Positions 3,497-56,222 of a stretch of 64,000 nucleotides of DNA are shown here, one piece after another; the stretch's first letter is position 1, and each line of letters opens with the position of its first letter. The notes below the pieces were generated by a model. It made no database searches and was not told the DNA's origin. It was given only the letters and a program-made list of their open reading frames with translations. Both the position numbers and the translations under genes were made by a program. This stretch comes from Gemmatimonadales bacterium (lineage in GTDB: Bacteria; Gemmatimonadota; Gemmatimonadetes; Gemmatimonadales; Gemmatimonadaceae). The stretch is taken from the NCBI GenBank assembly GCA_038319955.1, contig JBBQDT010000004.1, positions 545-64,544 of the forward strand. The letters run 5' to 3'.

Positions 3497-3841
3497 ATGT
3501 TCGCCGTCATGGCGCTGCTCTTTTCCTACGGTACGCTGCGGCAAGAGAGCGTACAGCTCTCGATGTTCGGGCGACGGTTTGCGGGGTCGAGTGACGAGTT
3601 GGTTGGCTTCGAGCAATCCACTGTGGCCATCGCCGATCCGGAGGTCAGGGCGAGGCTCGGCACCACGCACCACCAGAACGTCGTGCGAGGTGATGCACGG
3701 GCGGCCGGAACGGTCTACGAGATCGCCGATGAGGAGTTGGCGATACTCGATGCGTATGAGCTGGTCTTCGGGTATTCACGCATGCTGGCGAGGCTCGCGT
3801 CGGGCCGTGACGCGTGGGTGTACGTTCATGCCAGCCTGTAG
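3497..3841 (+). CDS. Gamma-glutamylcyclotransferase-like (AIG2/GGACT family) protein
   Basis: The N-terminal LLFSYGTL motif and the overall ~110-aa size are typical of GGCT-like proteins. The start may be ATG 3509 rather than 3497. Confidence 0.75.
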   Translation: MFAVMALLFSYGTLRQESVQLSMFGRRFAGSSDELVGFEQSTVAIADPEVRARLGTTHHQNVVRGDARAAGTVYEIADEELAILDAYELVFGYSRMLARLASGRDAWVYVHASL

Positions 3842-3935
3842 CATCGCGGAAACACGCAAAGCACCGAGTCGGAGAACGCGAACGACGTTGAAGGTGACTC
3901 GCCGAGCGGGCCACATCGTCCTCCTGAGCGCGCAC

Positions 3936-4862
3936 ATGCCAATCATTCGATCGATTCTCAGCCTCGCACTGATTCCCTCCCTGGTCTTCGCACAGCCGAC
4001 GAGGACGCGGGTGGTCATGCTCGGAACCGGGACGCCGATTCCCGACCCCGATCGCGCAGGGTCCGGCGTCGCGATCGTCGTCGATTCGGTCGCCTATCTC
4101 TTCGACGCCGGCGCGGGAGTCGTCCGTCGCGCGGCAGCAGCGGGCCGCAACGGCATCACGGCGTTCGCGCCTCGCAACGCCACCCCGCAGTCACAGTTCT
4201 CGCCGCGCTTCGATCGCGTCTTCCTCACCCACCTGCACTCCGACCACACACTCGGCCTCGCGGACGTGATCTTCACGCCGTGGATCCAGGGCCGGCGACT
4301 GCCGCTCGACGTCTATGGTCCAGTGGGGACGAGCCGTCTCGTCAACGGCATCCTCGACGGGAACACCGAAGACATCGATGAGCGTCGCGCGGCGCCCGGC
4401 GGTCCGTCGCCGACCGGCTGGCAGGTCGTCGTGCACGATGTCGCCGAGGGCGCCGTGTTCCACGACGAACGGATCACCGTTACCGCTTTCGCCGTTTCGC
4501 ATGCTGGATGGACACACGCCTTCGGCTATCGCATCCAGACGCCGGACCGCCTGATCGTCATCAGCGGCGACACGCGCGCGAATCCCGGCATCGCGACGCA
4601 GTGCAGTGGATGCGACGTGCTCATACACGAGGTCTACTCGGATGCGGGATTCACGAACCTCCCCGCCGAGCGACAAGCGTATCACGCACACGCGCACACG
4701 TCGGCGACGCAGTTGGGCGACATCGCCACCCGCGCGATGCCGAAGCTGTTGATCCTCTATCACCAGCTGTTCTTTGGCTCGTCCGACGACACGCTGCTCG
4801 CCGAAGTACGCTCGCGCTTCAGTGGTCGAGTGGCGTCCGCCAAGGATCTCGACGTGTACTGA
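3936..4862 (+). CDS. Secreted MBL-fold metallo-hydrolase
   Basis: The internal ATG 3936 of the long ORF 3087..4862 gives a signal peptide (MPIIRSILSLALIPSLVFAQ) followed by VVMLGTGTP and the HLHSDH (HxHxDH) motif. The upstream 280 codons of the ORF look like junk. Confidence 0.85.
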   Translation: MPIIRSILSLALIPSLVFAQPTRTRVVMLGTGTPIPDPDRAGSGVAIVVDSVAYLFDAGAGVVRRAAAAGRNGITAFAPRNATPQSQFSPRFDRVFLTHLHSDHTLGLADVIFTPWIQGRRLPLDVYGPVGTSRLVNGILDGNTEDIDERRAAPGGPSPTGWQVVVHDVAEGAVFHDERITVTAFAVSHAGWTHAFGYRIQTPDRLIVISGDTRANPGIATQCSGCDVLIHEVYSDAGFTNLPAERQAYHAHAHTSATQLGDIATRAMPKLLILYHQLFFGSSDDTLLAEVRSRFSGRVASAKDLDVY

Positions 4863-4866
4863 AGAA

Positions 4867-4918
4867 CAGTCCCTCGCCGCGCTCGGGACGACAGCATCAG
4901 CGCGCTTGTCGTCCCGGA
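4867..4918. repeat. REP-like element, one reverse copy plus one partial forward copy forming a hairpin
   Basis: CAGTCCCTCGCCGCGCTCGGGACGACA (4867-4893) is the reverse complement of the TGTCGTCCCGAGCGC.GCGAGGGAC element seen at 13731, 20902 and 34352. TTGTCGTCCCGGA (4906-4918) pairs with CGGGACGACA. It lies between convergent stop codons (4862 and 4920). Confidence 0.7.
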
Positions 4919-7934: not shown

Positions 7935-9116
7935 ATGATGGACACGACGATCGTCGGCGTGGTGGGTGCGGGTGCGATGGGCAGCGGCATCGCCCAGGTC
8001 GCGGCGACCGCGGGACATCCCGTCGTCCTCGGCGACGCGAATCCCGCTGCAGTGGGGAAGGCGTTGGCCGGCATCGCAAAGTCCCTGGCGCGCGAGGTGG
8101 AGAAGGGACGGCTCGATCAGAGCGCGGCGGACGCAGTGCGAGGTCGCATTCGCGATGCGGGCGATCTCTCGCTCAGCTTCGATGCCTACGCCGATTGCGG
8201 GCTCGTCATCGAGGCGGTGCTCGAGGATCTGGCGGTGAAGCGCACGTTGTTCGCAAGCCTGGAGACGGTCGTCGGCGACGACTGCGTGCTGGCGACGAAC
8301 ACGTCATCGCTCTCCGTTGCCGCCATCGGTGGCGGTTGCCGGAATGCGGGACGCGTCGTGGGCATCCACTTCTTCAATCCCGCGCCGGTGATGCCGCTCG
8401 TCGAGATCGTCCCGGCCATCACGACCTCGCCATCCGTGCTCGCGTCGTCGAAGGCGCTCGTCGACCGGTGGAAGAAGACCACCGTCATCGCCACCGACAC
8501 ACCCGGCTTCATCGTGAACCGGATCGCGCGGCCGTTCTACAGCGAGAGCCTGCGCCAGCTGGAAGAGCACGTGGCCGACGCTGCCACGATCGACTGGGCG
8601 ATGCGCGAGCTCGCCGGCTTTCGCATGGGACCATTCGAGCTGATGGACTTCATCGGCAACGACGTCAACTATGCGGTCACGGTCAGTGTGTTCGAGGCCT
8701 TCTACCAGGATTCCCGCTACCGCCCCGCGCTGACGCAGCGACGGCTGGTGGAGGCAGGCCTCCTCGGTCGCAAGAGCGGTCGTGGCTACTATGACTACCG
8801 CGACGGCGCCGCGAAGCCAGAGCCGACGCGCGACACGACGCTCGGTCAGGCCATCGTCGATCGCACGATGGCCATGCTCGTGAACTCGGCGGTCGATGCG
8901 GTGCACATGCGCATCGCGTCGCCGGTGGACATCGAGACGTCCATGACGAAGGGCGTCAACTATCCGAAGGGCCTGCTCGCGTGGGGCGACGAGATCGGGC
9001 CGGCGGAGATTCTCCAGCGGCTCGATCTGCTCCGCGCCGAATCGGGCGAGGAGCGCTATCGAGCCAGTCCCCTCCTGCGCCAGCGTGTGCGCGACGGACG
9101 CTCGCTGCTCACATGA
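7935..9116 (+). CDS. paaH: 3-hydroxyadipyl-CoA dehydrogenase (3-hydroxyacyl-CoA dehydrogenase family)
   Basis: Rossmann motif VVGAGAMGSGIA, FFNPAPVMPLVEI, and context between paaG and paaI. The start abuts the paaG stop. Confidence 0.85.
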   Translation: MMDTTIVGVVGAGAMGSGIAQVAATAGHPVVLGDANPAAVGKALAGIAKSLAREVEKGRLDQSAADAVRGRIRDAGDLSLSFDAYADCGLVIEAVLEDLAVKRTLFASLETVVGDDCVLATNTSSLSVAAIGGGCRNAGRVVGIHFFNPAPVMPLVEIVPAITTSPSVLASSKALVDRWKKTTVIATDTPGFIVNRIARPFYSESLRQLEEHVADAATIDWAMRELAGFRMGPFELMDFIGNDVNYAVTVSVFEAFYQDSRYRPALTQRRLVEAGLLGRKSGRGYYDYRDGAAKPEPTRDTTLGQAIVDRTMAMLVNSAVDAVHMRIASPVDIETSMTKGVNYPKGLLAWGDEIGPAEILQRLDLLRAESGEERYRASPLLRQRVRDGRSLLT

Positions 9117-9541
9117 CGGACGTCGCCGCGCAGGTCGTCGCCGGCATGCTCGCGCGTGACGAGTTCAGTCGTTGGCTCGGCATCGAGCTCGTCGAGCTCG
9201 CCGATGGTCGATGCGTGCTCCGGATGCGCGTTCGCGGGGACATGGTGAATGGCTTCGGTGTAGCACATGGTGGCATCGCGTTCTCGCTTGCCGACAGCGC
9301 GATGGCATTCGCCTGCAACGACGGTGCGAACGTCACCGTTGCCGTGGACAATGCGATCTCCTATCCGGCGGCGATCCGCGTGGACGATGAGCTCGTCGCG
9401 ACGGCGGAGCGGCAGAGCGGCTCGCGGAAACTGGCTTATTACAGCGTGACCGTCCGTCGGCGGGACGACGAGATCGTCGCACTCTTTCGCGGCACGGTGT
9501 ACCGGACCGCGCAACAGCACCCAACAGAGCAGACATCATGA
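9113..9541 (+). CDS. paaI: Hydroxyphenylacetyl-CoA thioesterase, hotdog fold (PaaI)
   Basis: ATG 9113 overlaps the paaH stop (ATGA). MTDVAAQ...NGFGVAHGGIAFSLADSA is typical of PaaI. The longer ORF 8981.. overlaps paaH. Confidence 0.8.
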   Translation: MTDVAAQVVAGMLARDEFSRWLGIELVELADGRCVLRMRVRGDMVNGFGVAHGGIAFSLADSAMAFACNDGANVTVAVDNAISYPAAIRVDDELVATAERQSGSRKLAYYSVTVRRRDDEIVALFRGTVYRTAQQHPTEQTS

Positions 9542-10749
9542 CTGAGGCATACATCGTCGATGGCGTTCGCACGGCCATCGGCAACATTGGTGGCCAGTTG
9601 AGCGAGATGCGCGCGGACGACATGGCGGCGCACGTCATCGCGCGGCTGGTCGCCCGCAACCCCTCGCTCGATCCGTCGCGTATCACCGACGTCATCCTTG
9701 GCTGCGCCAACCAGGCCGGCGAGGACAATCGAGACGTCGCCCGTATGGCGGGGTTGCTCGCTGGATTGCCCGTGAGCGTTCCGGGTGAGACGGTGAACCG
9801 CCTGTGCGCATCCGGCATGAGCGCCGTCGTCCACGCATCCCGCGCCATCAAGCTTGGCGAGGGCGACTACTTTGTCGCGGGCGGTGTGGAGAACATGACG
9901 CGCGCGCCGTACGTCATGAGCAAGTCGAGCAAGCCGTACGGGCGCGACATCGAGCTGTTCGACACGAGCCTCGGCTGGCGCTTCGTGAACCCGAAGATGC
10001 GCGAAACGTACGGCACGGACTCGATGGGACAGACCGCGGAGAATGTGGCCGAGAGGTACGGCATCGGTCGTGAGGATCAGGACGTGTTCGCGCTGCGGTC
10101 GCAGCAGAAGGCCGCGGCGGCGCGGGCGGCGGGGCGATTCGCACTGGAGATCGAGCCCATCGACATCGCGCAGAGGAAGGGCCCAGCCAAAGTGGTTGAG
10201 GTAGATGAATTCATTCGCCCCGATACCACCATCGAGATCCTCACGAAGCTCAGGCCCGCCTTCCGCACAGACGGGAAGGGATCCGTCACGGCGGGCAACT
10301 CGTCGGGGCTGAACGACGGCGCCGCGGCGCTGCTCATCGCATCGGAGAAAGGCGTGGCCCAGTTGGGCGGTCAGGCGATGGCGCGCATCGTGTCGTCGGC
10401 GGTGGCCGGCGTGGAGCCTCGCCTCATGGGCATGGGCCCGATTCCGGCAACGCGGCGCGCGCTCGAGATGGCGGGCATCTCGCTCGACGACATTGACGTG
10501 ATCGAGCTCAACGAAGCGTTCGCCGCGCAATCGCTCGGCGTGCTCCGCGAGCTTGGCATTGCCGATGACGACCCACGCGTCAACCCCAACGGTGGCGCGA
10601 TCGCGATCGGGCATCCGCTCGGCATGAGTGGAGCGCGGCTGCTCCTCACGGCAGCGCACGAGTTGCGACGCACGGACAAGCGGTACGCGCTGGCGACGAT
10701 GTGCATCGGCGTCGGACAGGGCATGGCCACGGTGATCGAGCGTGTCTAA
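9538..10749 (+). CDS. paaJ: 3-oxoadipyl-CoA / 3-oxo-5,6-dehydrosuberyl-CoA thiolase
   Basis: Thiolase signatures VNRLCASGM, NGGAIAIGHPLGMSGARL and CIGVGQG. A 4-nt overlap with paaI. Confidence 0.85.
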   Translation: MTEAYIVDGVRTAIGNIGGQLSEMRADDMAAHVIARLVARNPSLDPSRITDVILGCANQAGEDNRDVARMAGLLAGLPVSVPGETVNRLCASGMSAVVHASRAIKLGEGDYFVAGGVENMTRAPYVMSKSSKPYGRDIELFDTSLGWRFVNPKMRETYGTDSMGQTAENVAERYGIGREDQDVFALRSQQKAAAARAAGRFALEIEPIDIAQRKGPAKVVEVDEFIRPDTTIEILTKLRPAFRTDGKGSVTAGNSSGLNDGAAALLIASEKGVAQLGGQAMARIVSSAVAGVEPRLMGMGPIPATRRALEMAGISLDDIDVIELNEAFAAQSLGVLRELGIADDDPRVNPNGGAIAIGHPLGMSGARLLLTAAHELRRTDKRYALATMCIGVGQGMATVIERV

Positions 10750-10755
10750 TTCCTG

Positions 10756-11355
10756 ATGCCAAGCATCTTTGAATTCGACGGATTCATTCCGGTGGTCCAC
10801 GACAGTGCATTCGTGCATCCGAACGCGACCGTCACCGGCAACGTCATCATCGGGCGAGACGTGTATGTCGGTCCTGGCGCGGCCGTACGCGGCGATTGGG
10901 GTGGCGTCGTCATCGAGGACGGCTGCAACGTGCAGGAGAACTGCACCATCCACATGTTCCCGGGTGTCACTGTGGTGCTGGAGCGCGGCTCGCACATCGG
11001 ACACGGGGCGATCGTCCATGGGGCGCGCATCGGAGCGAATGCATTGATCGGGATGAACGCCGTCATCATGGACAACGCCAGCGTGGGAGCAGGATGCATC
11101 GTCGGGGCGCTCTGCTTCGTGCCGGCCCAGATGCAGATTCCGGAGCGAAAGGTGGTCGTCGGCAATCCGGCGAAGATCGTGAAGGATGTGAGTGACGAGA
11201 TGCTGGCGTGGAAGACGGAGGGCACGGCGCTGTATCAGGCGCTCCCCTCACGACTGCACGCGACATTGAGGGCTGTCGAGCCACTGCGCGACGTCCCCGC
11301 GGGACGCGATGCGCAGGTGATGTCCTACCAAACCTGGCGAGAGACACGATCGTGA
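10756..11355 (+). CDS. paaY: Hexapeptide-repeat (gamma-carbonic-anhydrase-like) protein PaaY
   Basis: Left-handed beta-helix repeats (VHPNATVTGNVIIGRDVYVGPGAAVRGD...) and its position between paaJ and paaZ. Confidence 0.8.
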   Translation: MPSIFEFDGFIPVVHDSAFVHPNATVTGNVIIGRDVYVGPGAAVRGDWGGVVIEDGCNVQENCTIHMFPGVTVVLERGSHIGHGAIVHGARIGANALIGMNAVIMDNASVGAGCIVGALCFVPAQMQIPERKVVVGNPAKIVKDVSDEMLAWKTEGTALYQALPSRLHATLRAVEPLRDVPAGRDAQVMSYQTWRETRS

Positions 11356-13520
11356 TGCGACTCAGGAACTACGCACTCGGCGAATGGATCGAGGGAACGG
11401 GCTCGGGCACGTCGCTGTACAATGCCGTCACGGGTACCGAGGTGGCCGTTGCCTCGAGTGACGGTCTCGATTTCAAGGCGATGTTGCACTACGGCCGCAC
11501 CGTGGGTGGACCGACGCTCCGCGCGATGACCTTTCATCAGCGCGCGAGAGTCCTCAAGGCGCTCGCCCAGTACCTCACGGTGAGGAAGGAAGAGGCGTAC
11601 GTGGTGTCCGCATGGACCGGCGCGACCCGCGGCGACTCGTGGATCGACATCGACGGCGGCATCGGAACGCTGTTCGCCTACGCGAGTCGTGGGCGACGTG
11701 AGTTTCCCGACGAGACGTATTACGTGGATGGCGGCCCCGAAGCGCTGAGCAAGGGTGGCACCTTCATCGGACGACACATCTGCGTCCCGATGGAAGGCGT
11801 CGCCGTGCAGATCAACGCATTCAACTTCCCCGTGTGGGGGATGCTGGAGAAGTTCGCGACGTCGTTTCTCGCCGGCGTGCCGAGCATCGTGAAGCCGGCC
11901 ACCGTGACCAGCTTTCTCACGGAGTTCGTGGCGCAGATGATGGTCGACTCCGGGCTGCTTCCTGCGGGGACGTTCCAGCTGATCTGCGGCAGCGCGGGCG
12001 ACCTCCTCGATCATCTCGACTGCCAGGATTCCGTGGCGTTCACCGGTTCCGCGTCGACGGGGTTGATGCTGAAGGGTGGGAGGGCGGTGATGGAGAACAG
12101 CGTCCGCTTCAACCAGGAGGCGGACTCGCTCAACTACTCGATGCTCGGCCCCGACGCCGTGCCGGGCAGCGACGAGTTCGACCTGTTCGTGAAGGAGGTC
12201 GCGCGTGAGATGACGGTGAAGGCGGGCCAGAAGTGCACGGCGATCCGCCGGACGTTCGTGCACGAGAGCATGGTGGAGGATGTCACGGCCGCGCTCAGGA
12301 AGCGACTGGCTGGCGTCAAGGTTGGCGATCCGTCGATCGACGCTGTGCGCATGGGGCCACTCGCGGGGAAGGGACAGGTCCGCGAGGTGGAGAAGAGTGT
12401 CGAGAGGCTTCGCGCCGGGACGGAGCTGGTGTTCGGCGGGCCCGGCACGCTCGACGTCATCGGCGCCGATGCGGAGAAGGGCGCGTTCTATCCGACGATG
12501 CTGCTCTACAACGGCCAGCCGTTCACGAGCACGCAGGCGCACGACGTCGAGGCGTTCGGGCCGGTGAACACCATCATGCCGTATGGCTCGGTGGACGAAG
12601 CCATCGAGCTCGCGAAGCTGGGGAAGGGAAGTCTTGTCGGCTCACTGTTCACGGCGAAGGACGACATCGCGCGGAAGGTCGCGCTGGGGACGGCCGCGTA
12701 TCATGGCCGCCTGATGCTCGTGAACCGTCATAGCGCGAAGGAGTCGACCGGCCACGGCTCACCGATGCCGCACCTGGTGCACGGCGGGCCCGGACGCGCC
12801 GGCGGTGGCGAGGAGATGGGCGGCGTGCGCGGCGTGCTGCATTACATGCAGCGCACGGCGCTCCAGGGCTCACCGCAGACGCTGGCGGCGGTGACCCGCG
12901 AGTGGAGCAAGGGCGCCAGCGAGCTGCGCGATCGCATTCATCCCTTTCGCAAGTATTTCGAGGAACTCGTGATCGGCGAGACGCACATCACCCATCGCCG
13001 CACGGTGACCGAGAGCGACGTCGTGAACTTCGCCGGCATTTCGGGAGACTTCTTCTACGCGCACATGGACGACATCGCCGCGCGCGAATCGCTGTTCGAG
13101 AAGCGCGTGGCCCACGGCTACTTCGTGCTGTCGGCGGCGGCGGGATTGTTCGTCGACCCCGCACCCGGTCCGGTGCTGGCGAACTACGGCCTCGAGGGGC
13201 TGCGATTCGTGAAGCCTGTCTACATCGGCGACACGATCCAGGCGCGCCTGACGTGCAAGCAGCGGACGATGAAGGAGGATCGCGAAGGACAGATTCCGCA
13301 GGGGGTGGTGCACTGGGACGTCGAGGTGACGAACCAGGATGATGAGCCGGTGGCGGTCTACACGATTCTCACACTGGTGAAGCGGTTGTCGGCGGTCGGT
13401 GCCGAAGCATCGGCACTCCAGGTTGAGTCGGCGATGAAGTCAGAGGCGCCCGATGCGGTGCGTGCGCCGGAAGTGATGGAGAAGACACAGCCGGGCGATG
13501 CGCCTGCGCGTGTTTCATGA
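11355..13520 (+). CDS. paaZ: Bifunctional oxepin-CoA hydrolase / aldehyde dehydrogenase PaaZ (ALDH + MaoC domains)
   Basis: ATG 11355 overlaps the paaY stop (GTGATG). The N-terminus [14 protein letters not shown] plus an ALDH body, then a C-terminal MaoC hot-dog ([22 protein letters not shown]). The upstream part of ORF 11208.. overlaps paaY. Confidence 0.85.
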
Positions 13521-13537
13521 CTGCTGACATCAGCCCC

Positions 13538-13566
13538 TTGACGAGCGATCCCCATCAACCCAGAAT
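13538..13566 (+). promoter_or_regulatory. Sigma-70-like promoter, TTGACG -17 nt- CAGAAT
   Basis: TTGACG 13538-13543 and CAGAAT 13561-13566. The predicted start site is about 7 nt downstream and coincides with the A of ATG 13573. Confidence 0.4.
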
Positions 13567-13572
13567 GCGTCC

Positions 13573-13647
13573 ATGACTTCCCGCGCCTACCGCTATTACA
13601 GCTATCCGACCCTCACGGGCCGGCGGCGGGAGCGTAGGCGCGGGTAA
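13573..13647 (+). CDS. Candidate leader peptide MTSRAYRYYSYPTLTGRRRERRRG (4 Tyr in 6 codons)
   Basis: ATG 13573, TAA 13645-13647. Tyr codons at 13588, 13594, 13597 and 13603, two of them the rare TAT. It is embedded in alternative hairpins ahead of the terminator at 13679-13708 and 140 nt upstream of phhA. Confidence 0.45.
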   Translation: MTSRAYRYYSYPTLTGRRRERRRG

Positions 13648-13678
13648 CTCCGCAGTCACCACCTCTCGATCGTCCCGC

Positions 13679-13708
13679 GGCCCGTGTGAATCTCACACGG
13701 GCCTTTTT
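13679..13708 (+). terminator. Rho-independent terminator
   Basis: GGCCCGTGTGA / TCACACGGGCC is a perfect 11-bp stem with a 3-nt loop, followed by TTTTT. Confidence 0.8.
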
Positions 13709-13761
13709 GTCGTCCCGAGCAGCCCTCATCTGTCGTCCCGAGCGCAGCGAGGGACCTGCTC
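13708..13761 (+). repeat. REP-like element, partial copy plus full copy in direct orientation
   Basis: TTGTCGTCCCGAGCAG (13708-13723) and TGTCGTCCCGAGCGCAGCGAGGGACCTGCTC (13731-13761). The same element occurs at 4867, 20902 and 34352. Confidence 0.7.
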
Positions 13762-13786
13762 GCCGTCCACCCCCAGGAGATGCCCG

Positions 13787-14545
13787 ATGCAAGACTCCCT
13801 CTGTGCGCACCTGCATACGCCCGCCCCCGCGACCTTCATCACGCAGGACTGGTCCGCCTACACCGACGAGAATCACCTCGCGTGGTCGATGCTTTACGAT
13901 CGCCGCATGGACACGCTGCGCGACACCGGCAGTTCCGTCTTCCTCGAAGGCGCTGCGACCATCGGCATCACGCGCGACACCGTGCCCGATCTCAGCGAGG
14001 TGAATGCACGCCTCGCCGACCGCACCGGATGGGCCGCCGTGCCCGTGTCGGGCTTCCTGCCCGCGAAGGAGTTCTTCGGATGCCTCGCCCAACGGCGCTT
14101 TCCCACCACGGTGTCCGTGCGCCCCATGGCGCAGCTCGACTATCTCCCGGAGCCGGACATCTTTCACGACGTCTTCGGCCACGTGCCGCTGCATGCGCAT
14201 CCGGTGTTCGCGGACTTCCTCCAGCGGTTCGGCCAGGCGGCAACGCGCGCGGTCACCGAGGAGCAGGTCGAGGCGATGGCGCGCCTGTTCTGGTTTACCG
14301 TGGAATTCGGGCTCGTGCACGAGAGCGGCCGCGTGAAGGTCTATGGCTCCGGCCTCATCTCATCCCATGGCGACGCAGCCAATGCGCTCGGCGACACCTG
14401 CGATCGACGGCCGTTCTCACTCGATGCCGTGCTGGCGCAGCCCTTCGAGATCGATCGGCTCCAGGATGTTCTCTTCGTCGTGGACGACTACCGGCAGCTG
14501 TTCGAAGCGGTAGAAGAAGCAGGCTCCCGCATGCGGCTGGGCTGA
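13787..14545 (+). CDS. phhA: Phenylalanine 4-hydroxylase (pterin-dependent aromatic amino acid hydroxylase)
   Basis: The 252-aa size and PDIFHDVFGHVPL iron-ligand motif match bacterial PhhA. GGAG lies 7 nt before the ATG. Confidence 0.9.
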   Translation: MQDSLCAHLHTPAPATFITQDWSAYTDENHLAWSMLYDRRMDTLRDTGSSVFLEGAATIGITRDTVPDLSEVNARLADRTGWAAVPVSGFLPAKEFFGCLAQRRFPTTVSVRPMAQLDYLPEPDIFHDVFGHVPLHAHPVFADFLQRFGQAATRAVTEEQVEAMARLFWFTVEFGLVHESGRVKVYGSGLISSHGDAANALGDTCDRRPFSLDAVLAQPFEIDRLQDVLFVVDDYRQLFEAVEEAGSRMRLG

Positions 14546-14629
14546 AAAGCGCGGGCGACGGGAACACTTCGGCCGCTGGGGGGACTACCATTTCTCACCA
14601 TACTTCTCACGTCACCAACTGGAGGCTCT

Positions 14630-15235
14630 GTGCTGTCTCGCCTGTTCGCTGCCGCCCTGCTCGTACCGACGCTCGCTGCCCCCATCGCGACCCGCCCCGC
14701 CCCGAAAGCGGCCGCCGTCTGGAACATCGACAAGGGCCATTCCAGCGTGAACTTCCAGATCCGCCATTTCGTGAGCAAGGTTCGCGGTTCGTTTGCCGAC
14801 TTCAAGGGCACCATCACCGCGGATCCCGACTCCTGGGAGCATGCACAGATCGACGTCGTGATCAACACGCCGAGCATCACGACCAGTAATGAGCGCCGCG
14901 ACGCGGACCTCCGGTCGCCAAATTTCTTCAGCGTCGATACGTTCCCGACGATCACCTTCAAGAGCACCAGGATCGAACGCAAGGGCGACGACGCGAAGAT
15001 CTACGGCACCCTCACGATGCGCGGCATCTCGAAAGACGTCGTGCTCACCGGCACCTTCAACGGCATCCAGAAGTCCTCGCAGGGCGGCGATCGCGTCGGC
15101 TTCGATGCGTCGACGACGATCAATCGTCTCGACTATGGCGTGAAGTGGAACCGCGCCGCGGAAGGCGGCGGCGTCATGCTCGGTGATGACGTGAAGATCG
15201 AGATCAACGTCGAAGCCGTCCGCGCCAAGAGCTGA
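14630..15235 (+). CDS. YceI family periplasmic protein
   Basis: Signal peptide, then WNIDKGHSSVNFQIRHFVSKVRGSF and TMRGISKDV, typical of YceI. GTG start with GGAGG upstream. Confidence 0.9.
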   Translation: MLSRLFAAALLVPTLAAPIATRPAPKAAAVWNIDKGHSSVNFQIRHFVSKVRGSFADFKGTITADPDSWEHAQIDVVINTPSITTSNERRDADLRSPNFFSVDTFPTITFKSTRIERKGDDAKIYGTLTMRGISKDVVLTGTFNGIQKSSQGGDRVGFDASTTINRLDYGVKWNRAAEGGGVMLGDDVKIEINVEAVRAKS

Positions 15236-15257
15236 CCACCTCCCACGACCATAGCCA

Positions 15258-16622
15258 ATGTCGCCACCGAAGCCCCTTCGCGTCCTGTTGCTGGCCATCG
15301 CCGTAGCGGCCTGCGGAGGGGATGCAGCCCCAGGCGGCACGGCAGCCATTCCCTCGGTGCCCCAGCCGGTCACGGGCGCCGCGAGCTTCGCGCAGATCCA
15401 GAGCACGATTCTCACGCCGAGCTGCGCAACGTCCGGCTGTCATGTCGGAAGCGCGCCGCAGGCGAATCTCTCGCTGGCCGCCGACGTCGCCTACGCGAAC
15501 CTGGTCGGTGTGCTGCCCACCAATCCCAACGCGCGTGACGACGGCCTGCGCCGCATCGTTCCCGGCAAGCCGGATTCGAGCCTGCTGTACCACAAGCTGG
15601 TCTTTCCGCCCGGGCATCACGCGCACGACTACGGCAACCCGATGCCCACCGGAACGGCGGGCCTGAGCATCGGGCAGCTGGAGTTCGTGCGGCAATGGAT
15701 CGCCGCCGGCGCGCCGAAGGATGGCGTCGTCGCCGATGCCACCTTGCTCGCGAACCGTTCGGCACAGGTGACGCAGCCGTTCGCGCCGCTCGCCGCGCCG
15801 GCCGCTGGCGCCGGTTTCCAGCTCAAGGTGGACCAGTTTCCTGTGGCGGCCAACTTCGAGCGCGAGCTGTTCAACTATCGGAAGGTCGGGAACACGTCGG
15901 ACGTCTTCGTCACGCGCATCGAGACATCGATGCGGCCGTTCAGCCACCATTTCGTCTTTTACACGTTCGCCGGCAACATCCCGCCAGCGTTGGTGCCGGC
16001 GCCCGATGTCGTCCGCGACATCCGGAAGGCCGACAATTCGATGGACTTCGCCAACATGCTGGTGATGGGCTACCACGTGTTCCTTGGCGGATCGATGCAG
16101 GCGCAAAGCAACTATGTCTTTCCAGCGGGAACGGCCCTCCGGCTGCCGGCCAACGCAGCCATCGACCTGAACGTGCACTACGCCAACCACACCAGTACCC
16201 CGGTGCAGGGCGAGGCATACGTCAATTTCTACACGGTGCCGAAGTCGGAGGTCGCCCATCCGCTGTCGACGCTCAACCTCCAGAACACGGGAATGATCCT
16301 TCCGCCCGGGCAGGTCACGACGTCGAGCAAGGACTTCCTCTTCAACGCGCCGACCACGATCACGGGTCTCACGTCGCACATGCATGCGCGTGGCACAAAG
16401 TTCCAGATTCGCATCGTGGGCGGCCCTCGCGACGGTGAACTCGTGTACGAGAACACCGATTGGGAGCATCCCCAGATCGTGACCTACGCGCAGCCGATCG
16501 TGCTGCAATCGGGGCAGGGCCTTCGCTCCGTGGTGACGTGGAACAACACGACATCGCGAACGCTGTACTTCGGCCTCACCTCTGATGACGAGATGGACAT
16601 CATCTTCGGCTACTACTACTAG
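15258..16622 (+). CDS. Lipoprotein: N-terminal cytochrome-c-like (PSCyt1-like, CX4CH) domain fused to a PHM/DBH-like copper monooxygenase-type domain
   Basis: Lipobox LAIAVAAC. ILTPSCATSGCH...IVPGKPDSSLLYHKL...MPTGTAGLSIGQLEFVRQWIAAGAP resembles the planctomycete cytochrome C domain. The C-terminal part carries SHHF, GYHV, TSHMHARG and DDEMD, spaced like the His3 and His2Met copper sites of peptidylglycine monooxygenase. The CDS itself is secure; the functional call is tentative. Confidence 0.65.
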   Translation: MSPPKPLRVLLLAIAVAACGGDAAPGGTAAIPSVPQPVTGAASFAQIQSTILTPSCATSGCHVGSAPQANLSLAADVAYANLVGVLPTNPNARDDGLRRIVPGKPDSSLLYHKLVFPPGHHAHDYGNPMPTGTAGLSIGQLEFVRQWIAAGAPKDGVVADATLLANRSAQVTQPFAPLAAPAAGAGFQLKVDQFPVAANFERELFNYRKVGNTSDVFVTRIETSMRPFSHHFVFYTFAGNIPPALVPAPDVVRDIRKADNSMDFANMLVMGYHVFLGGSMQAQSNYVFPAGTALRLPANAAIDLNVHYANHTSTPVQGEAYVNFYTVPKSEVAHPLSTLNLQNTGMILPPGQVTTSSKDFLFNAPTTITGLTSHMHARGTKFQIRIVGGPRDGELVYENTDWEHPQIVTYAQPIVLQSGQGLRSVVTWNNTTSRTLYFGLTSDDEMDIIFGYYY

Positions 16623-19599: not shown

Positions 19600-20934
19600 A
19601 TGAAGCTCACCCGCTCCGTCACGACGCTCTCGCTCGTCTTCATTCTCTACTTCTGCACGTCGGGCGGCGCGTTCACCACGGAGACGCTCGTCCAATCGGT
19701 GGGCCCGGGCTTCGCGCTGCTCGTCCTCGTGCTCGTTCCCATCGTCTACTCGTTGCCCGAAGTGCTCATTGTCGGGGAGCTGGCGAGCATGCTGCCCCTG
19801 GAGGGCGGCTACTATCGCTGGGTGCAGCGGGCGTTCGGGCCATTCTGGGCGTTCCAGAATGGATGGCTCACGTGGATGTATTCGCTGGTGGACATGGCCA
19901 TCTACCCGAAGCTGTTCGTCACGTACCTCGCGTACTTCCTGCCCGGTTTGTCACCGAGCGTCGTGTGGGTCGTTGGTCTGTTCGTCATCTGGGTGCCCAC
20001 AGTGCTCAACCTGATGGGTGCGCAGCGCGTCGGGCGGAGCTCGGTGATCGCGGGGACGTTCATCGTCGGCGGGTTCGTTGCGCTGTCAGTCGTCGCGGTC
20101 ATGCACGCCACGCACGTACCATGGCATCCATTCGCTGCGCCCGGTCGGTCCGGTGCGAGCGGACTCGCCGTGGGGTTATCCATCGCCCTCTGGAATTACA
20201 TCGGGTGGGATAACGCATCGACGGTGCAAGGCGAGGTCAAGGATGCCACGCGCGCGTATCCGCGTGCGCTCGCGTTCGCGCTGCCGCTGGTGGCGGCGGG
20301 CTACCTCGTGCCGTTGCTGGCCACGCTCGCCGCCACCGATTGGACGACGTGGACCGAAGGTAGCTGGCCACAGATCGCGCTGGCCGCGGGTGGCTCGGCC
20401 GGTCCGGTGCTCGCCGCGTGGATGGCGTTGGCGGGCATGGTGAGCGCGCTGGCGCTGTTCAACGCGCTGCTGCTGTCGTATTCGCGCATTCCCTTCGTGA
20501 TGGCGGAAGACGGCTTGCTGCCAGCGGCGTTGGGCCGCACGGACGCGCGAGGCACGCCGCGCAACGCGGTGCTCGTTTCGGCGCTCTGCTACTCCGTGTT
20601 CATGCTGCTGCCGTTCGGCGGGCTCGTCGTCGCCGACGTGCTCCTGTATTCGCTGGCGCTCATGCTGGAGTTCGCGTCACTGCTGCAGCTCCGTCGGCGC
20701 GAGCCGACGCTGCGCGGGGCATTTCGCATTCCCGTCGGCACGGCCGGCGTGGCGGTGCTCGCCGCGCTTCCGCTCGGCGTGTTGTTTCTCGTCGTGGGAT
20801 TGAGCTTTGCGGACGGCGAGTACGGGCTGCCGGCCGTGGGAGGTGCCGCCGTGGCGATCGCGCTGGGACCTGTCGTCTATGCGCTGGCTCGCGCACGAAA
20901 AGCAGGTCCCTCACTGCGTTCGGGACGACTATAG
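19600..20934 (+). CDS. APC superfamily amino acid / polyamine permease
   Basis: Internal ATG 19600 (MKLTRSVTTLSLVFILYFCTSGGAF) begins a ~12-TM protein. The upstream part of ORF 19333.. overlaps the divergent ABC gene. The last ~11 codons are encoded by a REP-like element. Confidence 0.8.
   Translation: MKLTRSVTTLSLVFILYFCTSGGAFTTETLVQSVGPGFALLVLVLVPIVYSLPEVLIVGELASMLPLEGGYYRWVQRAFGPFWAFQNGWLTWMYSLVDMAIYPKLFVTYLAYFLPGLSPSVVWVVGLFVIWVPTVLNLMGAQRVGRSSVIAGTFIVGGFVALSVVAVMHATHVPWHPFAAPGRSGASGLAVGLSIALWNYIGWDNASTVQGEVKDATRAYPRALAFALPLVAAGYLVPLLATLAATDWTTWTEGSWPQIALAAGGSAGPVLAAWMALAGMVSALALFNALLLSYSRIPFVMAEDGLLPAALGRTDARGTPRNAVLVSALCYSVFMLLPFGGLVVADVLLYSLALMLEFASLLQLRRREPTLRGAFRIPVGTAGVAVLAALPLGVLFLVVGLSFADGEYGLPAVGGAAVAIALGPVVYALARARKAGPSLRSGRL
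20902..20929 (-). repeat. REP-like element (reverse orientation)
   Basis: GCAGGTCCCTCACTGCGTTCGGGACGAC is the reverse complement of GTCGTCCCGAACGCAGTGAGGGACCTGC. It spans the overlapping 3' ends of two convergent genes. Confidence 0.7.
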
Positions 20935-22218
20935 TTTCGGCACCACGCCACCCTTCATGACGAAGGTCACGTCCCGCACCGCGTGAATGTCGCGCGACGG
21001 ATCGCCGCGGACCGCCACGAGATCCGCGAGTAGCCCTGGCTTCACCGTGCCGAACTGTTGCTCCATGTGCAGCAACCTCGCATTGGTGCTCGTTGCCGCC
21101 CGCAGTACGGCCAGGGGCGACACGCCGTAGTCCACCAACAGCTCGAGCTCGCGGCCCTCTTCGCCATGCGTGAACACGCCGACGTCACTCCCGCTGCAGA
21201 GCGTCACGCCGGCGTCGAGCGCCGCCCTGACGCTCGCCTTCTTCTCCACGACGCGCTCAGGATCGGGATCGCCCTTCTTGTAGCCGCGATACCGGAGGAG
21301 TGCGTCGCCGGCGGCGACCGTAGGACACAGGGCGACGTTGTGCTCCTTCATCAGGCGAAACACTTCCGGCGTCCCCGAGTCGCCATGCTCGATGGTCTCG
21401 ACACCGGCCAGCGTCGCACGACGCATCCCTTCCGCCGTCGACGCATGTGCGACCACCGCGCGGCCTGACGTCTTCGCGATCTCGACGATCTGCTTCAGTT
21501 CATCGAGCGTGAAGGTGGGGCGCGCCTCGCCATTGGGGCCCCATCGATAGTCGGCGTAGACCTTGATCCAGTCGGCGCCGCGACCGATCTGGTCGCGAAC
21601 CACGCGGGCGAGATTCGACCCATCGGCCTCCTCGGCGCCCTGCGGCACGTCCATATCCGGTGTGAAGCCGCGCGGCCCGTAGCTGCCCGTGGCCACGATG
21701 GCGCGCGTCACCACGAACATGCGCGGTCCGGGAATGATGCCCTGCGCAATCGCCTTCTTCAGGCCGACGTCCGCGTACCCCGCGCCTTCGGTGCCGAGGT
21801 CGCGCACCGTGGTGAAACCGTTGCGGAGCGTCTCGCGCGCGTGGTTGGTCGCGCGCGCCACGCGAAGGGCAAGCGACTCGTGGAGCACCTGGTCGTCCCA
21901 ACTCGTCTCGTTGTACGGATGCAGTAGCAGGTGCGAGTGCATCTCGATGAGGCCGGGCATCAGCGTGCTGCCCGCGAGGTCGACGCGGCGCGCACTGGCT
22001 GGTGCGGCGATCGAGCTGGTGGGGCCTGCGGCCGCGATGCGTTCACCGCGGACGAGAACGCTCCAGCCGTCGTGCATCTCCATGCCATCGAATACGCGCG
22101 ACGGCGTGATGAGGGTGGACGACGTGTCCGGCGTGCGAGCGGCGGGCGTCTGTGCGGCAAGCGGAAAAGCGCTCGCGGCCACGACGGCCAGTGCGAAGCG
22201 AACTGGGTAGGGTTGCAT
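20929..22218 (-). CDS. Secreted amidohydrolase family protein (metal-dependent, TIM barrel)
   Basis: Start at MQPYPVRFALAVVAASAFPLAAQ (ATG 22218-22216). PGLIEMHSHLL and VVAHAST motifs are typical of the Amidohydro_1 family. Confidence 0.85.
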   Translation of the reverse strand: MQPYPVRFALAVVAASAFPLAAQTPAARTPDTSSTLITPSRVFDGMEMHDGWSVLVRGERIAAAGPTSSIAAPASARRVDLAGSTLMPGLIEMHSHLLLHPYNETSWDDQVLHESLALRVARATNHARETLRNGFTTVRDLGTEGAGYADVGLKKAIAQGIIPGPRMFVVTRAIVATGSYGPRGFTPDMDVPQGAEEADGSNLARVVRDQIGRGADWIKVYADYRWGPNGEARPTFTLDELKQIVEIAKTSGRAVVAHASTAEGMRRATLAGVETIEHGDSGTPEVFRLMKEHNVALCPTVAAGDALLRYRGYKKGDPDPERVVEKKASVRAALDAGVTLCSGSDVGVFTHGEEGRELELLVDYGVSPLAVLRAATSTNARLLHMEQQFGTVKPGLLADLVAVRGDPSRDIHAVRDVTFVMKGGVVPKL

Positions 22219-34344: not shown

Positions 34345-34351
34345 TTCGTCC

Positions 34352-34382
34352 TGTCGTCCCGAGCATCGCGAGGGACCTGCTC
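34352..34382 (+). repeat. REP-like element
   Basis: TGTCGTCCCGAGCATCGCGAGGGACCTGCTC, between the convergent stops of the GH38 gene and the dppC-like gene. Confidence 0.7.
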
Positions 34383-50588: not shown

Positions 50589-51414
50589 TCGTCGTCCCAC
50601 GCGCCGCAACCGTCGACCCGAGCGCAGCGAGCGACCCGCTCTCATGGCTCGTGCGAGGAAATGTTCTTCCCTCGCGTTCCTCACTGCACTAGGGGCCTGC
50701 TCCTGGTTCACCGACTTCCGGGAGCAGCCCAAGCCCGATCCGTGGGAGTCGCCCAGCGATAGCATCGCGATGCGCGGCAACCCGCAGAACTCCGTGTCCG
50801 TCTACGGAACGCTCGCGCCGAGCTATGCCTATTCGCACACGGCATCGATCGCGACAGTGGATTCCATGGCGGGAATCCAGAATCCCGTCGCAGGCGACGC
50901 GCGCTCGCTGCACAACGGACGCATGTACTACCAGATCAACTGCGCGGTTTGCCACGGCGAGGCAGGCAAGGGGGACGGACCCATCCTCACCGCCAAGGCG
51001 ATCTACCCGCCGCCGCTCATCGGCGCGTCCGCGGAGGGCAGGTCCGACGGCTACATCTGGGGGATCATTCGCAACGGCCGCGGTGCGATGCCGTCCTACG
51101 ATCGCATCGAGGAAATGGATCGGTGGGACGTGGTGAACTATGTCCGCGGCCTGCAGGGCAAGTATCAGGTGGCAACGGGCGCTGTCGGCCTGCCTGGTGA
51201 GACAGGTGACAAGGTGCCCGGCTATTCGCAGATGGGGCCCACCCGTCCGTCGCCGTATTACAAGCACGCCGGCTCGCAAGCTGACTCGACGCGTGGCTAC
51301 GCATTTCCGCGTTCGCAGTCGGCGGCGCCGGCCAAGCCCGATTCCATGCCGGCGGCGAACCCTGCGTCCGCCGTGCCCACTCCCCCGACGCCGAAGACCG
51401 GAGGCGAGCGGTGA
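50578..51414 (+). CDS. actE: Alternative complex III subunit ActE (monoheme cytochrome c lipoprotein-like)
   Basis: A single CAVCH motif with downstream Met (RGAMPSY). Lipobox-like LTALGAC. The start, 50578 or 50644, is uncertain. There is a long low-complexity C-terminal tail. Confidence 0.8.
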   Translation: MSADRRPTRRNRRPERSERPALMARARKCSSLAFLTALGACSWFTDFREQPKPDPWESPSDSIAMRGNPQNSVSVYGTLAPSYAYSHTASIATVDSMAGIQNPVAGDARSLHNGRMYYQINCAVCHGEAGKGDGPILTAKAIYPPPLIGASAEGRSDGYIWGIIRNGRGAMPSYDRIEEMDRWDVVNYVRGLQGKYQVATGAVGLPGETGDKVPGYSQMGPTRPSPYYKHAGSQADSTRGYAFPRSQSAAPAKPDSMPAANPASAVPTPPTPKTGGER

Positions 51415-53354: not shown

Positions 53355-53427
53355 GGGGCGTTAGCTCAGCAGGGAGAGCGCTGCCTTTGCAAGGCAGAGG
53401 TCATCGGTTCGATCCCGATACGCTCCA
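53355..53427 (+). tRNA. tRNA-Ala (anticodon UGC)
   Basis: Manual cloverleaf: acceptor GGGGCGT/ACGCTCC with the G3:U70 Ala identity pair, D arm GCTC/GAGC, anticodon arm CTGCC-TTTGCAA-GGCAG, T arm ATCGG-TTCGATC-CCGAT, discriminator A. CCA is not encoded. Confidence 0.95.
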
Positions 53428-55915: not shown

Positions 55916-56097
55916 GGTAACGCTTGACGCACGAATAGAACTCGCCACCTTGGGCGCGACGACGTACCGACATCTACCACCCGCATGACGCGCAACCACC
56001 GCTCCACGCTTATGCAGCAGTCGAATCCGGCTCTCCCTCTGAGAGGCGGCGCGACGTCATCTGCGTAACCGCAGCGGACAACGAGATGAAACTCGAC

Positions 56098-56129
56098 GCG
56101 GCCCCTCTCCAGACGAGGGGCCGCTTTTT
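56098..56129 (+). terminator. Rho-independent terminator
   Basis: GCGGCCCCTC / GAGGGGCCGC is a perfect 10-bp stem with a 7-nt loop, followed by TTTTT. It lies 183 nt after the kinase stop. Confidence 0.8.
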
Positions 56130-56222
56130 GTTGGCGGTTGGAACGCTGCACCCCGCAATGGATAGACAAAACGGACGGCAACGGAACGACGGACCCCACA
56201 CTTCTCGACCGGGAGAGACGAC

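Follow-up and report, generated by a model that had tools for sequence, protein, structure and literature searches.

The region between paaZ and phhA, the gene for phenylalanine 4-monooxygenase, was analysed in a 64,000-nucleotide (nt) stretch of DNA from a Gemmatimonadales bacterium (the window; contig JBBQDT010000004.1). The segment at positions 13538-13708 is very probably a ribosome-mediated (leader-peptide) attenuator, which would sense charged tRNA-Tyr and control phhA. This interpretation, which was reached by sequence analysis, is strongly supported by the cross-genome comparison. The unit recurs in front of phhA in related genomes, and the same RNA scaffold with other codon runs precedes other amino acid biosynthetic genes.

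A tyrosine-rich leader ORF and alternative RNA stems in front of phhA

The paaZ gene, assigned by NCBIfam (976 bits), ends with the stop codon at 13518-13520, and the regulated gene phhA (13787-14545, plus strand; NCBIfam NF008877, 303.8 bits against a cutoff of 247) has the Shine-Dalgarno sequence AGGAG at 13775-13779. A sigma-70-like promoter is located between the two genes on the plus strand (13538-13566) and consists of TTGACG (13538-13543), a 17-nt spacer and CAGAAT (13561-13566). When the region from 12500 to 15500 was scanned for promoter-like sites, this site was the single match, with 0.3 expected. The ATG at 13573 follows 6 nt after the -10 hexamer. This ATG opens a leader open reading frame (ORF) of 24 codons (MTSRAYRYYSYPTLTGRRRERRRG; 13573-13647, plus strand) that is closed by TAA at 13645-13647, and no further in-frame start lies 5' of it. 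Both the promoter and the mini-ORF are present as an earlier reading of this DNA, the first-pass annotation, had described them.

Four tyrosine (Tyr) codons are found within six codons at 13588-13605 on the plus strand (TAC CGC TAT TAC AGC TAT), at positions 13588 (TAC), 13594 (TAT), 13597 (TAC) and 13603 (TAT), and this run provides the proposed stall sites. Among the 442 small ATG ORFs on the two strands of the window, only this leader has at least four Tyr in six codons. The first-pass annotation had taken TAT as rare. It is the minor codon, but it is not very rare in the window, where it accounts for 14 of the 47 Tyr codons in six genes with a third-position G+C fraction of 0.84. For the loci L001-L071, the ratio of TAT to TAC was 44:49 in the leaders (47% TAT) versus 12:102 in the phhA coding sequences (11% TAT; p = 3e-9). 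The reason for this enrichment could be that TAT is decoded more slowly, or that the stems require A/U bases.

The transcript contains a set of segments, all on the plus strand, that can pair in alternative ways. S1 (13580-13590), which overlaps the first Tyr codon, and S1' (13634-13644), directly 5' of the stop codon, are an 11-nt perfect inverted repeat, as had been claimed, and they form the 5' and 3' strands of the lower stem of a leader hairpin. A local arm, S1b (CCGACCC, 13606-13612), forms a tip hairpin with S2 (CCG.CCC/GGG.CGG) and is segment 1 of the 1:2 pairing. The first-pass annotation had named S1 as the segment masked by a stalled ribosome. S1 would indeed be masked, but not S1 alone, because S1b pairs directly with S2. 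Both the S1:S1' stem and the S1b:S2 tip hairpin are present in the minimum-free-energy fold, and the fold of 13567-13712 gave z = -3.75. S2 (13614-13631) consists of the box CACGGGCC(G) and an extension, GCGGGA, and provides the 5' strand of the antiterminator. The box has the same sequence as the 3' arm of the terminator (S4), and CACGGGCC thus occurs as an exact direct repeat of 8 nt at 13614-13621 and 13696-13703.

S3 (TCCCGCGGCCCGTG, 13673-13686) has two alternative partners, S2 in the antiterminator and S4 in the terminator. The intrinsic terminator (13679-13708) has an 11-bp perfect stem, made of GGCCCGTGTGA (13679-13689) and TCACACGGGCC (13693-13703) around the loop ATC, and is followed by TTTTT, in agreement with the earlier description. 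A repeat finder detected the S2:S3 pairing as a perfect complement of 9 nt (13614-13622 with 13678-13686), which engages the 5' arm of the terminator; the extension adds 10 nt with 90% complementarity (13622-13631 with 13673-13682). The first-pass annotation had recognized these two segments and their complementarity. However, it placed each start one base too low (13613 and 13672 instead of 13614 and 13673) and counted the pairing as 8+6 bp, where the perfect stretch is 9 bp.

Conservation of the unit and its geometry

Among the Gemmatimonadota phhA loci with upstream DNA, the unit was found in 22 of 28, and it was also found in three phhA loci of Acidobacteriota, one from Thermoanaerobaculia and two from Terriglobales (L031, L042 and L071). 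The Tyr-rich mini-ORF that had been proposed from a single sequence is thus conserved upstream of orthologous phhA genes, as are the S2 box and the terminator; a lack of such conservation had been named in the first-pass annotation as a ground for refuting its proposal. The conserved unit consists of a promoter, a Tyr-rich ATG ORF without a Shine-Dalgarno sequence, a CACGGGCC-like box inside this ORF, and the terminator GGCCCGTG/CACGGGCC followed by a T-run. The ORF has 22-30 codons in all 25 orthologous units. In the 52 phhA loci without the unit, which comprise all those of Planctomycetota, most of Acidobacteriota and six of Gemmatimonadota, the 400 nt upstream contained no aromatic-rich ORF window in any of the frames, apart from one marginal case. 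One of these loci, L002 (~3760-3990; PhhA 84% identity), has no leader or terminator, and its spacer contains three direct TACGGAT repeats, which may represent another mode of regulation.

In about 20 of 26 loci, the promoter is recognizable as TTGAC(A/G), a spacer of 17 or 18 nt and an xAxxxT hexamer ending 6-10 nt 5' of the leader ATG, and a Shine-Dalgarno sequence ahead of the ATG was found in none of the 26. The first-pass annotation had deduced a leaderless mini-ORF from the -10-to-ATG spacing in the window, and the two features that support it are conserved across the loci. As judged from the promoter spacing, the leader mRNA is probably leaderless or nearly so. The place of the promoter is occupied in three loci by a tRNA-Gly(CCC) gene, the end of which lies 3-7 nt 5' of the leader ATG (L004, 3746-3818; L005, 3709-3781; L016, 1606-1678). 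The attenuator may be co-transcribed with the tRNA in these loci, and 3' processing of the tRNA would leave a near-leaderless mRNA. A tRNA-Gly(CCC) gene is likewise located just ahead of the leader ATG in the metagenome loci L168, L172 and L188.

The geometry of the unit varies little. The median distance was 14 nt from the last aromatic codon to the box (interquartile range 13-16), 22 nt from the end of the box to the stop codon (22-23), and 25 nt from the stop codon to S3 (23-27). With this spacing, if a late Tyr codon occupied the A site of the ribosome, the footprint would span S1 and S1b and end at the edge of S2. The box is usually translated as ...TGR..., while the same nucleotides are read in another frame as ...SRA(AG)... 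in several leaders, for example those of L013, L089, L166, L176 and L199. Since the frame differs and the nucleotides do not change, it is the RNA that is conserved, and not the peptide.

The first-pass annotation had added the caveat that the hairpin could simply be the terminator of paaZ. In its full form, this explanation takes the hairpin and the T-run as a plain terminator of the paa operon, and the Tyr-rich ORF and the complementarities as chance products in G+C-rich intergenic DNA. The stem lies 159 nt past the paaZ stop codon and would end read-through transcripts; furthermore, G+C-rich DNA folds easily, and the folding z-scores of the individual leader ORFs are modest, with a mean of -1.3. 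However, the 5' neighbour of the unit varies (paaZ, tRNA-Gly(CCC) or unrelated genes) while the whole unit is kept before phhA. Therefore, the unit belongs to phhA and is not merely a paaZ terminator. The unit also has its own conserved promoter, and chance would have to account for a run so rich in Tyr that it occurs just once among the small ORFs of the window. The unit may stop read-through from paaZ as well, though not as its sole role.

Codon runs on the same scaffold before other biosynthetic genes

Metagenome sequences were scanned with the pattern ACGGGCC, a gap of 40-70 nt, GGCCCGTG, a gap of 3-10 nt, and CACGGGCC. About 85 matches had a T-rich tail, and these were sorted by the first downstream gene, using tblastn against reference proteins. 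The scaffold preceded PhhA in 26 distinct metagenome leaders, which have Tyr runs and nearly no phenylalanine (Phe). In 32 leaders (many loci, L083-L199), it preceded 3-deoxy-D-arabino-heptulosonate 7-phosphate (DAHP) synthase followed by prephenate dehydrogenase, and the runs were mixtures of Phe and Tyr, such as MASARFFAYDFFYYGFPSTGRGWRRTRD. One leader (L130), located before prephenate dehydratase, has a pure Phe run (MPQRVSRFRFAFFFTSHETGRDWSRARD; RFRFAFFF), and three leaders before aspartokinase-homoserine dehydrogenase I (thrA) have threonine (Thr) runs, such as MTNAAIRTTGTTTTTTTRLTGRGRECLRR and TTGTTTTTTT. The loci named with Thr runs are L081, L120, L142 and L163. The ratio of Tyr to Phe was 182:15 in the phhA leaders versus 127:66 in the DAHP synthase leaders (Fisher p = 5e-11). 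A constant scaffold, on which the codon run shifts with the pathway, is what amino-acid-specific ribosome-mediated attenuation predicts, and a codon run that matches the downstream gene would be hard to explain by anything else.

A covariance model was trained on the phhA leaders alone. It matched the window only at 13603-13714 (76 bits, E = 5e-16), apart from one weak match, and recovered two held-out loci, L019 and L028. The leaders of the other three gene classes were scored at 45-97 bits. The weak match in the window, at 56024-56133 (18 bits, E = 0.08), lacks a codon run and probably represents an ordinary terminator; a short ORF (MQQSNPALPLRGGATSSA) is followed there by the strong terminator GCGGCCCCTC...GAGGGGCCGC and a T-run. 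Another weak match, at 3622-3719 of L047 (E = 0.013), was rejected as an ordinary terminator, also without a codon run.

The occurrence of the unit before thrA, DAHP synthase and prephenate dehydratase, each time with the matching codon run, also contradicts a plain paaZ terminator with complementarities made by chance. That explanation is largely refuted by the comparative data, and we give it almost no weight. The same data bear on two further possibilities, that the product of the mini-ORF is a small basic peptide rich in Tyr with a function of its own, or that the region acts as a separate small RNA, the position before phhA being incidental or of use only for translational coupling. The conserved length of the ORF and its conserved C-terminal motif would suit such a peptide, and a short transcript ending at the terminator would be a discrete RNA. 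However, the peptide sequence diverges freely beyond the aromatic run and the box-encoded residues, and the frame-shifted variants retain the RNA boxes and lose the peptide. An incidental position is difficult to reconcile with scaffolds that carry Thr or Phe runs and precede the matching biosynthetic genes. Translational coupling is implausible, as the terminator intervenes and the ORF lies 140 nt ahead of the phhA Shine-Dalgarno sequence. A functional peptide or an independent small RNA is thus very improbable, and attenuation by codon-specific stalling is the preferred interpretation.

Covariation and energetics of the alternative stems

The stems were evaluated in a structural alignment (A1) of 25 species, for the selection of which stems were not used. 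In the terminator, 91% of the cells were paired and compensatory changes were present in 8 of 13 pairs, and the covariation score was matched by none of 500 shuffles. The S1b:S2 tip hairpin, which was independently predicted by RNAalifold, was paired in 84.7% of the cells, as compared with 36-51% in slid registers, and its covariation score was again matched by 0 of 500 shuffles. The S2:S3 antiterminator was paired in 87.4% of the cells versus 27-44% in slid registers. The first-pass annotation had envisaged covarying stems; the terminator and the tip hairpin do covary, but in the antiterminator the complementarity is conserved without significant covariation. The word shared by S2 and S4 had a median length of 8 nt in 23 loci, as compared with 4-5 nt in control DNA. 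Consistent changes of the boxes occur only in L024 and L020. In L024, all three segments are changed (S2 CCGCGGGTC, S3 GACCCGCGG and S4 CCGCGGGTC), and in L020, an extra G in S2 and in S4 faces an inserted U in S3. When folded individually, most leader ORFs form one long hairpin, with the region of the aromatic codons as its 5' strand, and most orthologues have a counterpart of the S1:S1' stem, which joins the aromatic codons to the 3' region.

In the window, the leader hairpin (13580-13644) has a folding energy of about -38.2 to -38.9 kcal/mol and the terminator one of -20.8 kcal/mol. Full-length folds always contained the terminator, even with the ribosome masked, and did not separate the states, as is the case with classical attenuators; partial-transcript folds were used instead for comparing the states. 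For the window transcript ending with S3, the two conformers were nearly isoenergetic, at -42.8 to -44.3 kcal/mol with the antiterminator and -40.9 kcal/mol with the leader hairpin and a free S3. When a ribosome on the Tyr codons was masked, the upstream pairing of S3 gained 10-13.5 kcal/mol. Over 26 loci, this gain was -9.0 kcal/mol in the stalled state versus -4.8 kcal/mol in the free state (Wilcoxon p = 6e-5).

Several observations weigh against the attenuator interpretation, in addition to the modest z-scores of the individual leader ORFs. The covariation of S2:S3 is not significant, as 67-154 of 500 shuffles matched the observed values, and it did not become significant when the antiterminator was extended by the neighbouring pair 65-143, which is CG in 9 loci and UA in 4 loci, with 10 mismatches. 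A comparison of the duplex energies of each S2 with the S3 of its own and of other loci detected no locus-specific S2:S3 signal (p = 0.41). The lack of significant covariation is due to the near-invariance of the columns, and with boxes so nearly invariant the S2:S3 helix rests on conserved complementarity. The metagenome pattern fixes S2, S3 and S4, and the set that it yielded says nothing on their variability. Six Gemmatimonadota phhA loci are devoid of the element, including L002 in spite of its paaZ-phhA synteny. In the thermodynamic fold of the free partial transcript of the window, S3 pairs upstream even without a ribosome, and therefore, the choice between the states must be kinetic, as in the classical systems. 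In addition, the core of S2 lies outside the reach of a ribosome at the stop codon. The first-pass annotation had such a ribosome covering S1' and the 3' part of S2, and its model is refined in this respect.

The weak S2:S3 covariation also fits a different kind of attenuator, in which the signal is not, or not only, stalling at Tyr codons. An RNA-binding protein or a small ligand could act on the CACGGGCC/GGCCCGTG boxes, which are almost invariant across operons and two phyla, where pairing alone would permit drift. A basic C-terminal peptide (...TGRGRRRxR) could also act in the exit tunnel, given that the leader tails are conserved and arginine (Arg)-rich. However, the codon run alone varies systematically with the regulated gene, and it does so in the expected direction. 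The invariance can be explained by a three-way constraint, in which S1b resembles S3, S2 resembles S4 and the region is partly coding. A role of the nascent peptide is unlikely because translation runs through the box in two or three frames, which gives different peptides (e.g., ...SRAAGAGVRA), and no Rfam riboswitch or protein-binding leader was matched. We therefore consider such a signal improbable, and prefer the sensing of Tyr by codon-specific stalling.

The database searches were made with Rfam 15. The region 13300-14000 gave no meaningful match at E<=10, including the Thr, Phe, Trp, His and Leu leaders and the T-box, and eight related loci, among them the Thr, Phe and Phe+Tyr versions, gave no matches. 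In the whole window, a tRNA gene at 53355-53427 was the sole Rfam match at the gathering threshold.

Proposed mechanism

From these comparisons we infer where transcription starts, that the ORF is translated and ribosomes stall on it, in what kinetic order the RNA folds, and what this means for the physiology, as follows. Transcription would probably start at, or within a few bases of, the ATG at 13573, and the leader of 24 codons would be translated as a leaderless ORF. In the free RNA, or after passage of the ribosome, the long leader hairpin would form, with S1 and S1b against S2 and S1'. This hairpin would lock up S2, so that S3 would pair with S4 and the transcript would terminate at the T-run, at 13708. 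Termination would thus be the default, both for untranslated RNA and after fast translation, and the terminator would also block read-through from paaZ. When Tyr-tRNA is scarce, the ribosome would stall on 13588-13605 and melt S1 and S1b, with a footprint ending just short of S2. The freed S2 would capture S3 as soon as it is made, the terminator would be pre-empted, and RNA polymerase would enter phhA. PhhA would then turn Phe into Tyr on demand.

PhhA was considered as the sole route to Tyr in the absence of TyrA. This idea does not hold for part of the phylum at the least, as a gene for prephenate dehydrogenase is present in the attenuated DAHP synthase operons. Since tyrA is also present in these lineages, PhhA would be a second, demand-driven source of Tyr beside the Phe+Tyr-attenuated DAHP synthase-tyrA operon.

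A broader interpretation joins these results. Gemmatimonadota and some Acidobacteriota might use one reprogrammable cassette, in which a leaderless ORF is combined with near-invariant CACGGGCC/GGCCCGTG stems in a fixed geometry. A swap of the codon run would reset its amino acid specificity, and copies of the cassette would have passed between the thrA, pheA-type, DAHP synthase-tyrA and phhA operons. That the stems and the Arg-rich tail vary so little could then be due to an extra sequence-specific component beyond the three-way pairing, either a box-binding factor or an effect of the nascent peptide. Taken as a whole, this proposal is tentative and we regard it as rather unlikely. If it were true, PhhA would be wired throughout the phylum as a Tyr-biosynthetic enzyme that is induced by Tyr starvation.

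Neighbouring genes and elements

In a protein search with one genome per species, the PhhA of the window was 95% identical to that of a Gemmatimonadaceae metagenome-assembled genome. A repetitive extragenic palindrome (REP)-like hairpin element (TGTCGTCCCGAGCGCAGCGAGGGACCTGCT) is located between the terminator and phhA at 13731-13760 on the plus strand, with a partial copy at 13708-13720. In the closest relative, L001, only 19 nt separate the tail of the terminator from phhA, and the REP-like insertion is absent. The element is an insertion, separate from the attenuator. Further intergenic copies resembling TGTCGTCCCGAGCGCAGCGAGGGACCTGCT are found in the window, at approximately 34351-34382 and 50610-50640 on the plus strand and 4868-4898 and 20905-20935 on the minus strand.

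A gene of the YceI family (14630-15235), whose product has a signal-peptide-like N-terminus, follows 84 nt 3' of phhA on the same strand. No obvious terminator lies between the two genes, and the YceI-family gene may come under the same attenuator as phhA. On its 5' side, the attenuator adjoins a phenylacetate-catabolism cluster (7935-13520), composed of a paaH-like gene and the genes for 3-oxoadipyl-CoA thiolase, paaY and paaZ. A phenylacetate cluster is located next to phhA also in L002 and L010, and this arrangement is not general.

Comparison with known attenuators and significance

The phhA leader resembles the leaders described by the Yanofsky model (trpL, pheL-pheA, thrL and hisL) in having a short ORF with a run of cognate codons. 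It also shares with the enterobacterial leaders the four segments with exclusive 1:2, 2:3 and 3:4 pairings, the intrinsic terminator before the structural gene, and, as predicted, termination as the default when the leader is untranslated or fully translated. In contrast, it has no sequence or structure homology to them, as indicated by the lack of an Rfam match, it would sense Tyr, and the gene that it regulates encodes a hydroxylase interconverting two amino acids. The stop codon is located about 22 nt past segment 2, whereas it lies between segments 1 and 2 in the enterobacterial leaders. The phhA leader also lacks a Shine-Dalgarno sequence and probably starts at the 5' end of the transcript. 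Finally, one scaffold with near-invariant stems serves the Thr, Phe, Phe+Tyr and Tyr leaders, unlike in the enterobacterial systems. Tyr-specific T-box leaders, such as those of tyrS in Firmicutes, also switch between a terminator and an antiterminator; they bind uncharged tRNA directly and need no translation. Both types would answer to the charging of tRNA-Tyr by control of a terminator, and the window has no T-box match.

The aroR leader of aroF in Corynebacterium glutamicum, which contains Phe-Tyr-Phe, responds to Phe limitation and not to Tyr availability (Neshat et al. 2014, as reported in PMC11802643). An aromatic-codon leader peptide and ribosome stalling are common to aroR-aroF and to the elements proposed here, and aroR is analogous to the Phe+Tyr leaders before DAHP synthase. 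By contrast, the phhA leaders are dominated by Tyr and precede phhA, in another phylum and with unrelated sequence. In mycobacteria, leaderless polycysteine short ORFs act as cysteine-responsive attenuators, according to a preprint (bioRxiv 10.1101/834739). As described there, the leaderless ORF is the first cistron and a codon run for one amino acid tunes the downstream operon, as is predicted for the phhA leader. The phhA leader differs from that description in its obvious terminator and antiterminator, in the amino acid and in the phylum, and its leaderless start is judged from promoter spacing only.

In Pseudomonas, the sigma-54 activator PhhR induces phhABC for the catabolism of Phe and Tyr (PMC1173090). 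Control of the PhhR/TyrR type in Proteobacteria thus concerns the same gene and a response to aromatic amino acids, but the logic of the phhA leader would be reversed, with Tyr shortage acting through a cis-acting RNA. In a survey of 2010, leader peptides were known only in Proteobacteria and Actinobacteria and from a hisS case in Firmicutes, and attenuators of Acidobacteria were unannotated (PMC2965389). No described phhA or Tyr attenuator and no leader peptides of Gemmatimonadota were found in the literature searched, which left out most subscription journals; the statement in the first-pass annotation that it knew of no Tyr-codon leader controlling phhA agrees with this result.

In model organisms, Tyr genes are controlled by the TyrR or PhhR proteins, or by T-boxes, and to our knowledge, no dedicated Tyr-sensing leader-peptide attenuator is known; aroR of C. 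glutamicum is the single known leader with a Tyr codon, and it is reported not to respond to Tyr. On the present comparison, the predicted phhA leader is a Tyr-specific, probably leaderless addition to the known class of leader-peptide attenuators. The phhA leaders thus predicted are part of a family that spans the phylum, had not been annotated before, and uses the same scaffold for several amino acids. A Tyr-specific attenuator would be conserved across a phylum for which no cis-regulatory RNA of this kind is described in the literature searched. The related elements in front of thrA, prephenate dehydratase and DAHP synthase-tyrA would show how the specificity of an attenuator evolves by codon exchange. 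The covariance model can be used for the annotation of such leaders in metagenomes, and the element would provide a regulatory handle for the few cultured Gemmatimonadota.

For the physiology of these bacteria, the attenuator implies a Tyr-supplying role of PhhA in Gemmatimonadota. Genetic work in Dyella has shown a biosynthetic route through phenylalanine hydroxylase, and such a route has been suggested for Legionella (PMC7311316). Phenylalanine hydroxylase, an enzyme mostly seen as catabolic, would be placed by the phhA leader under a starvation-type control, which fits the route in Dyella and Legionella.

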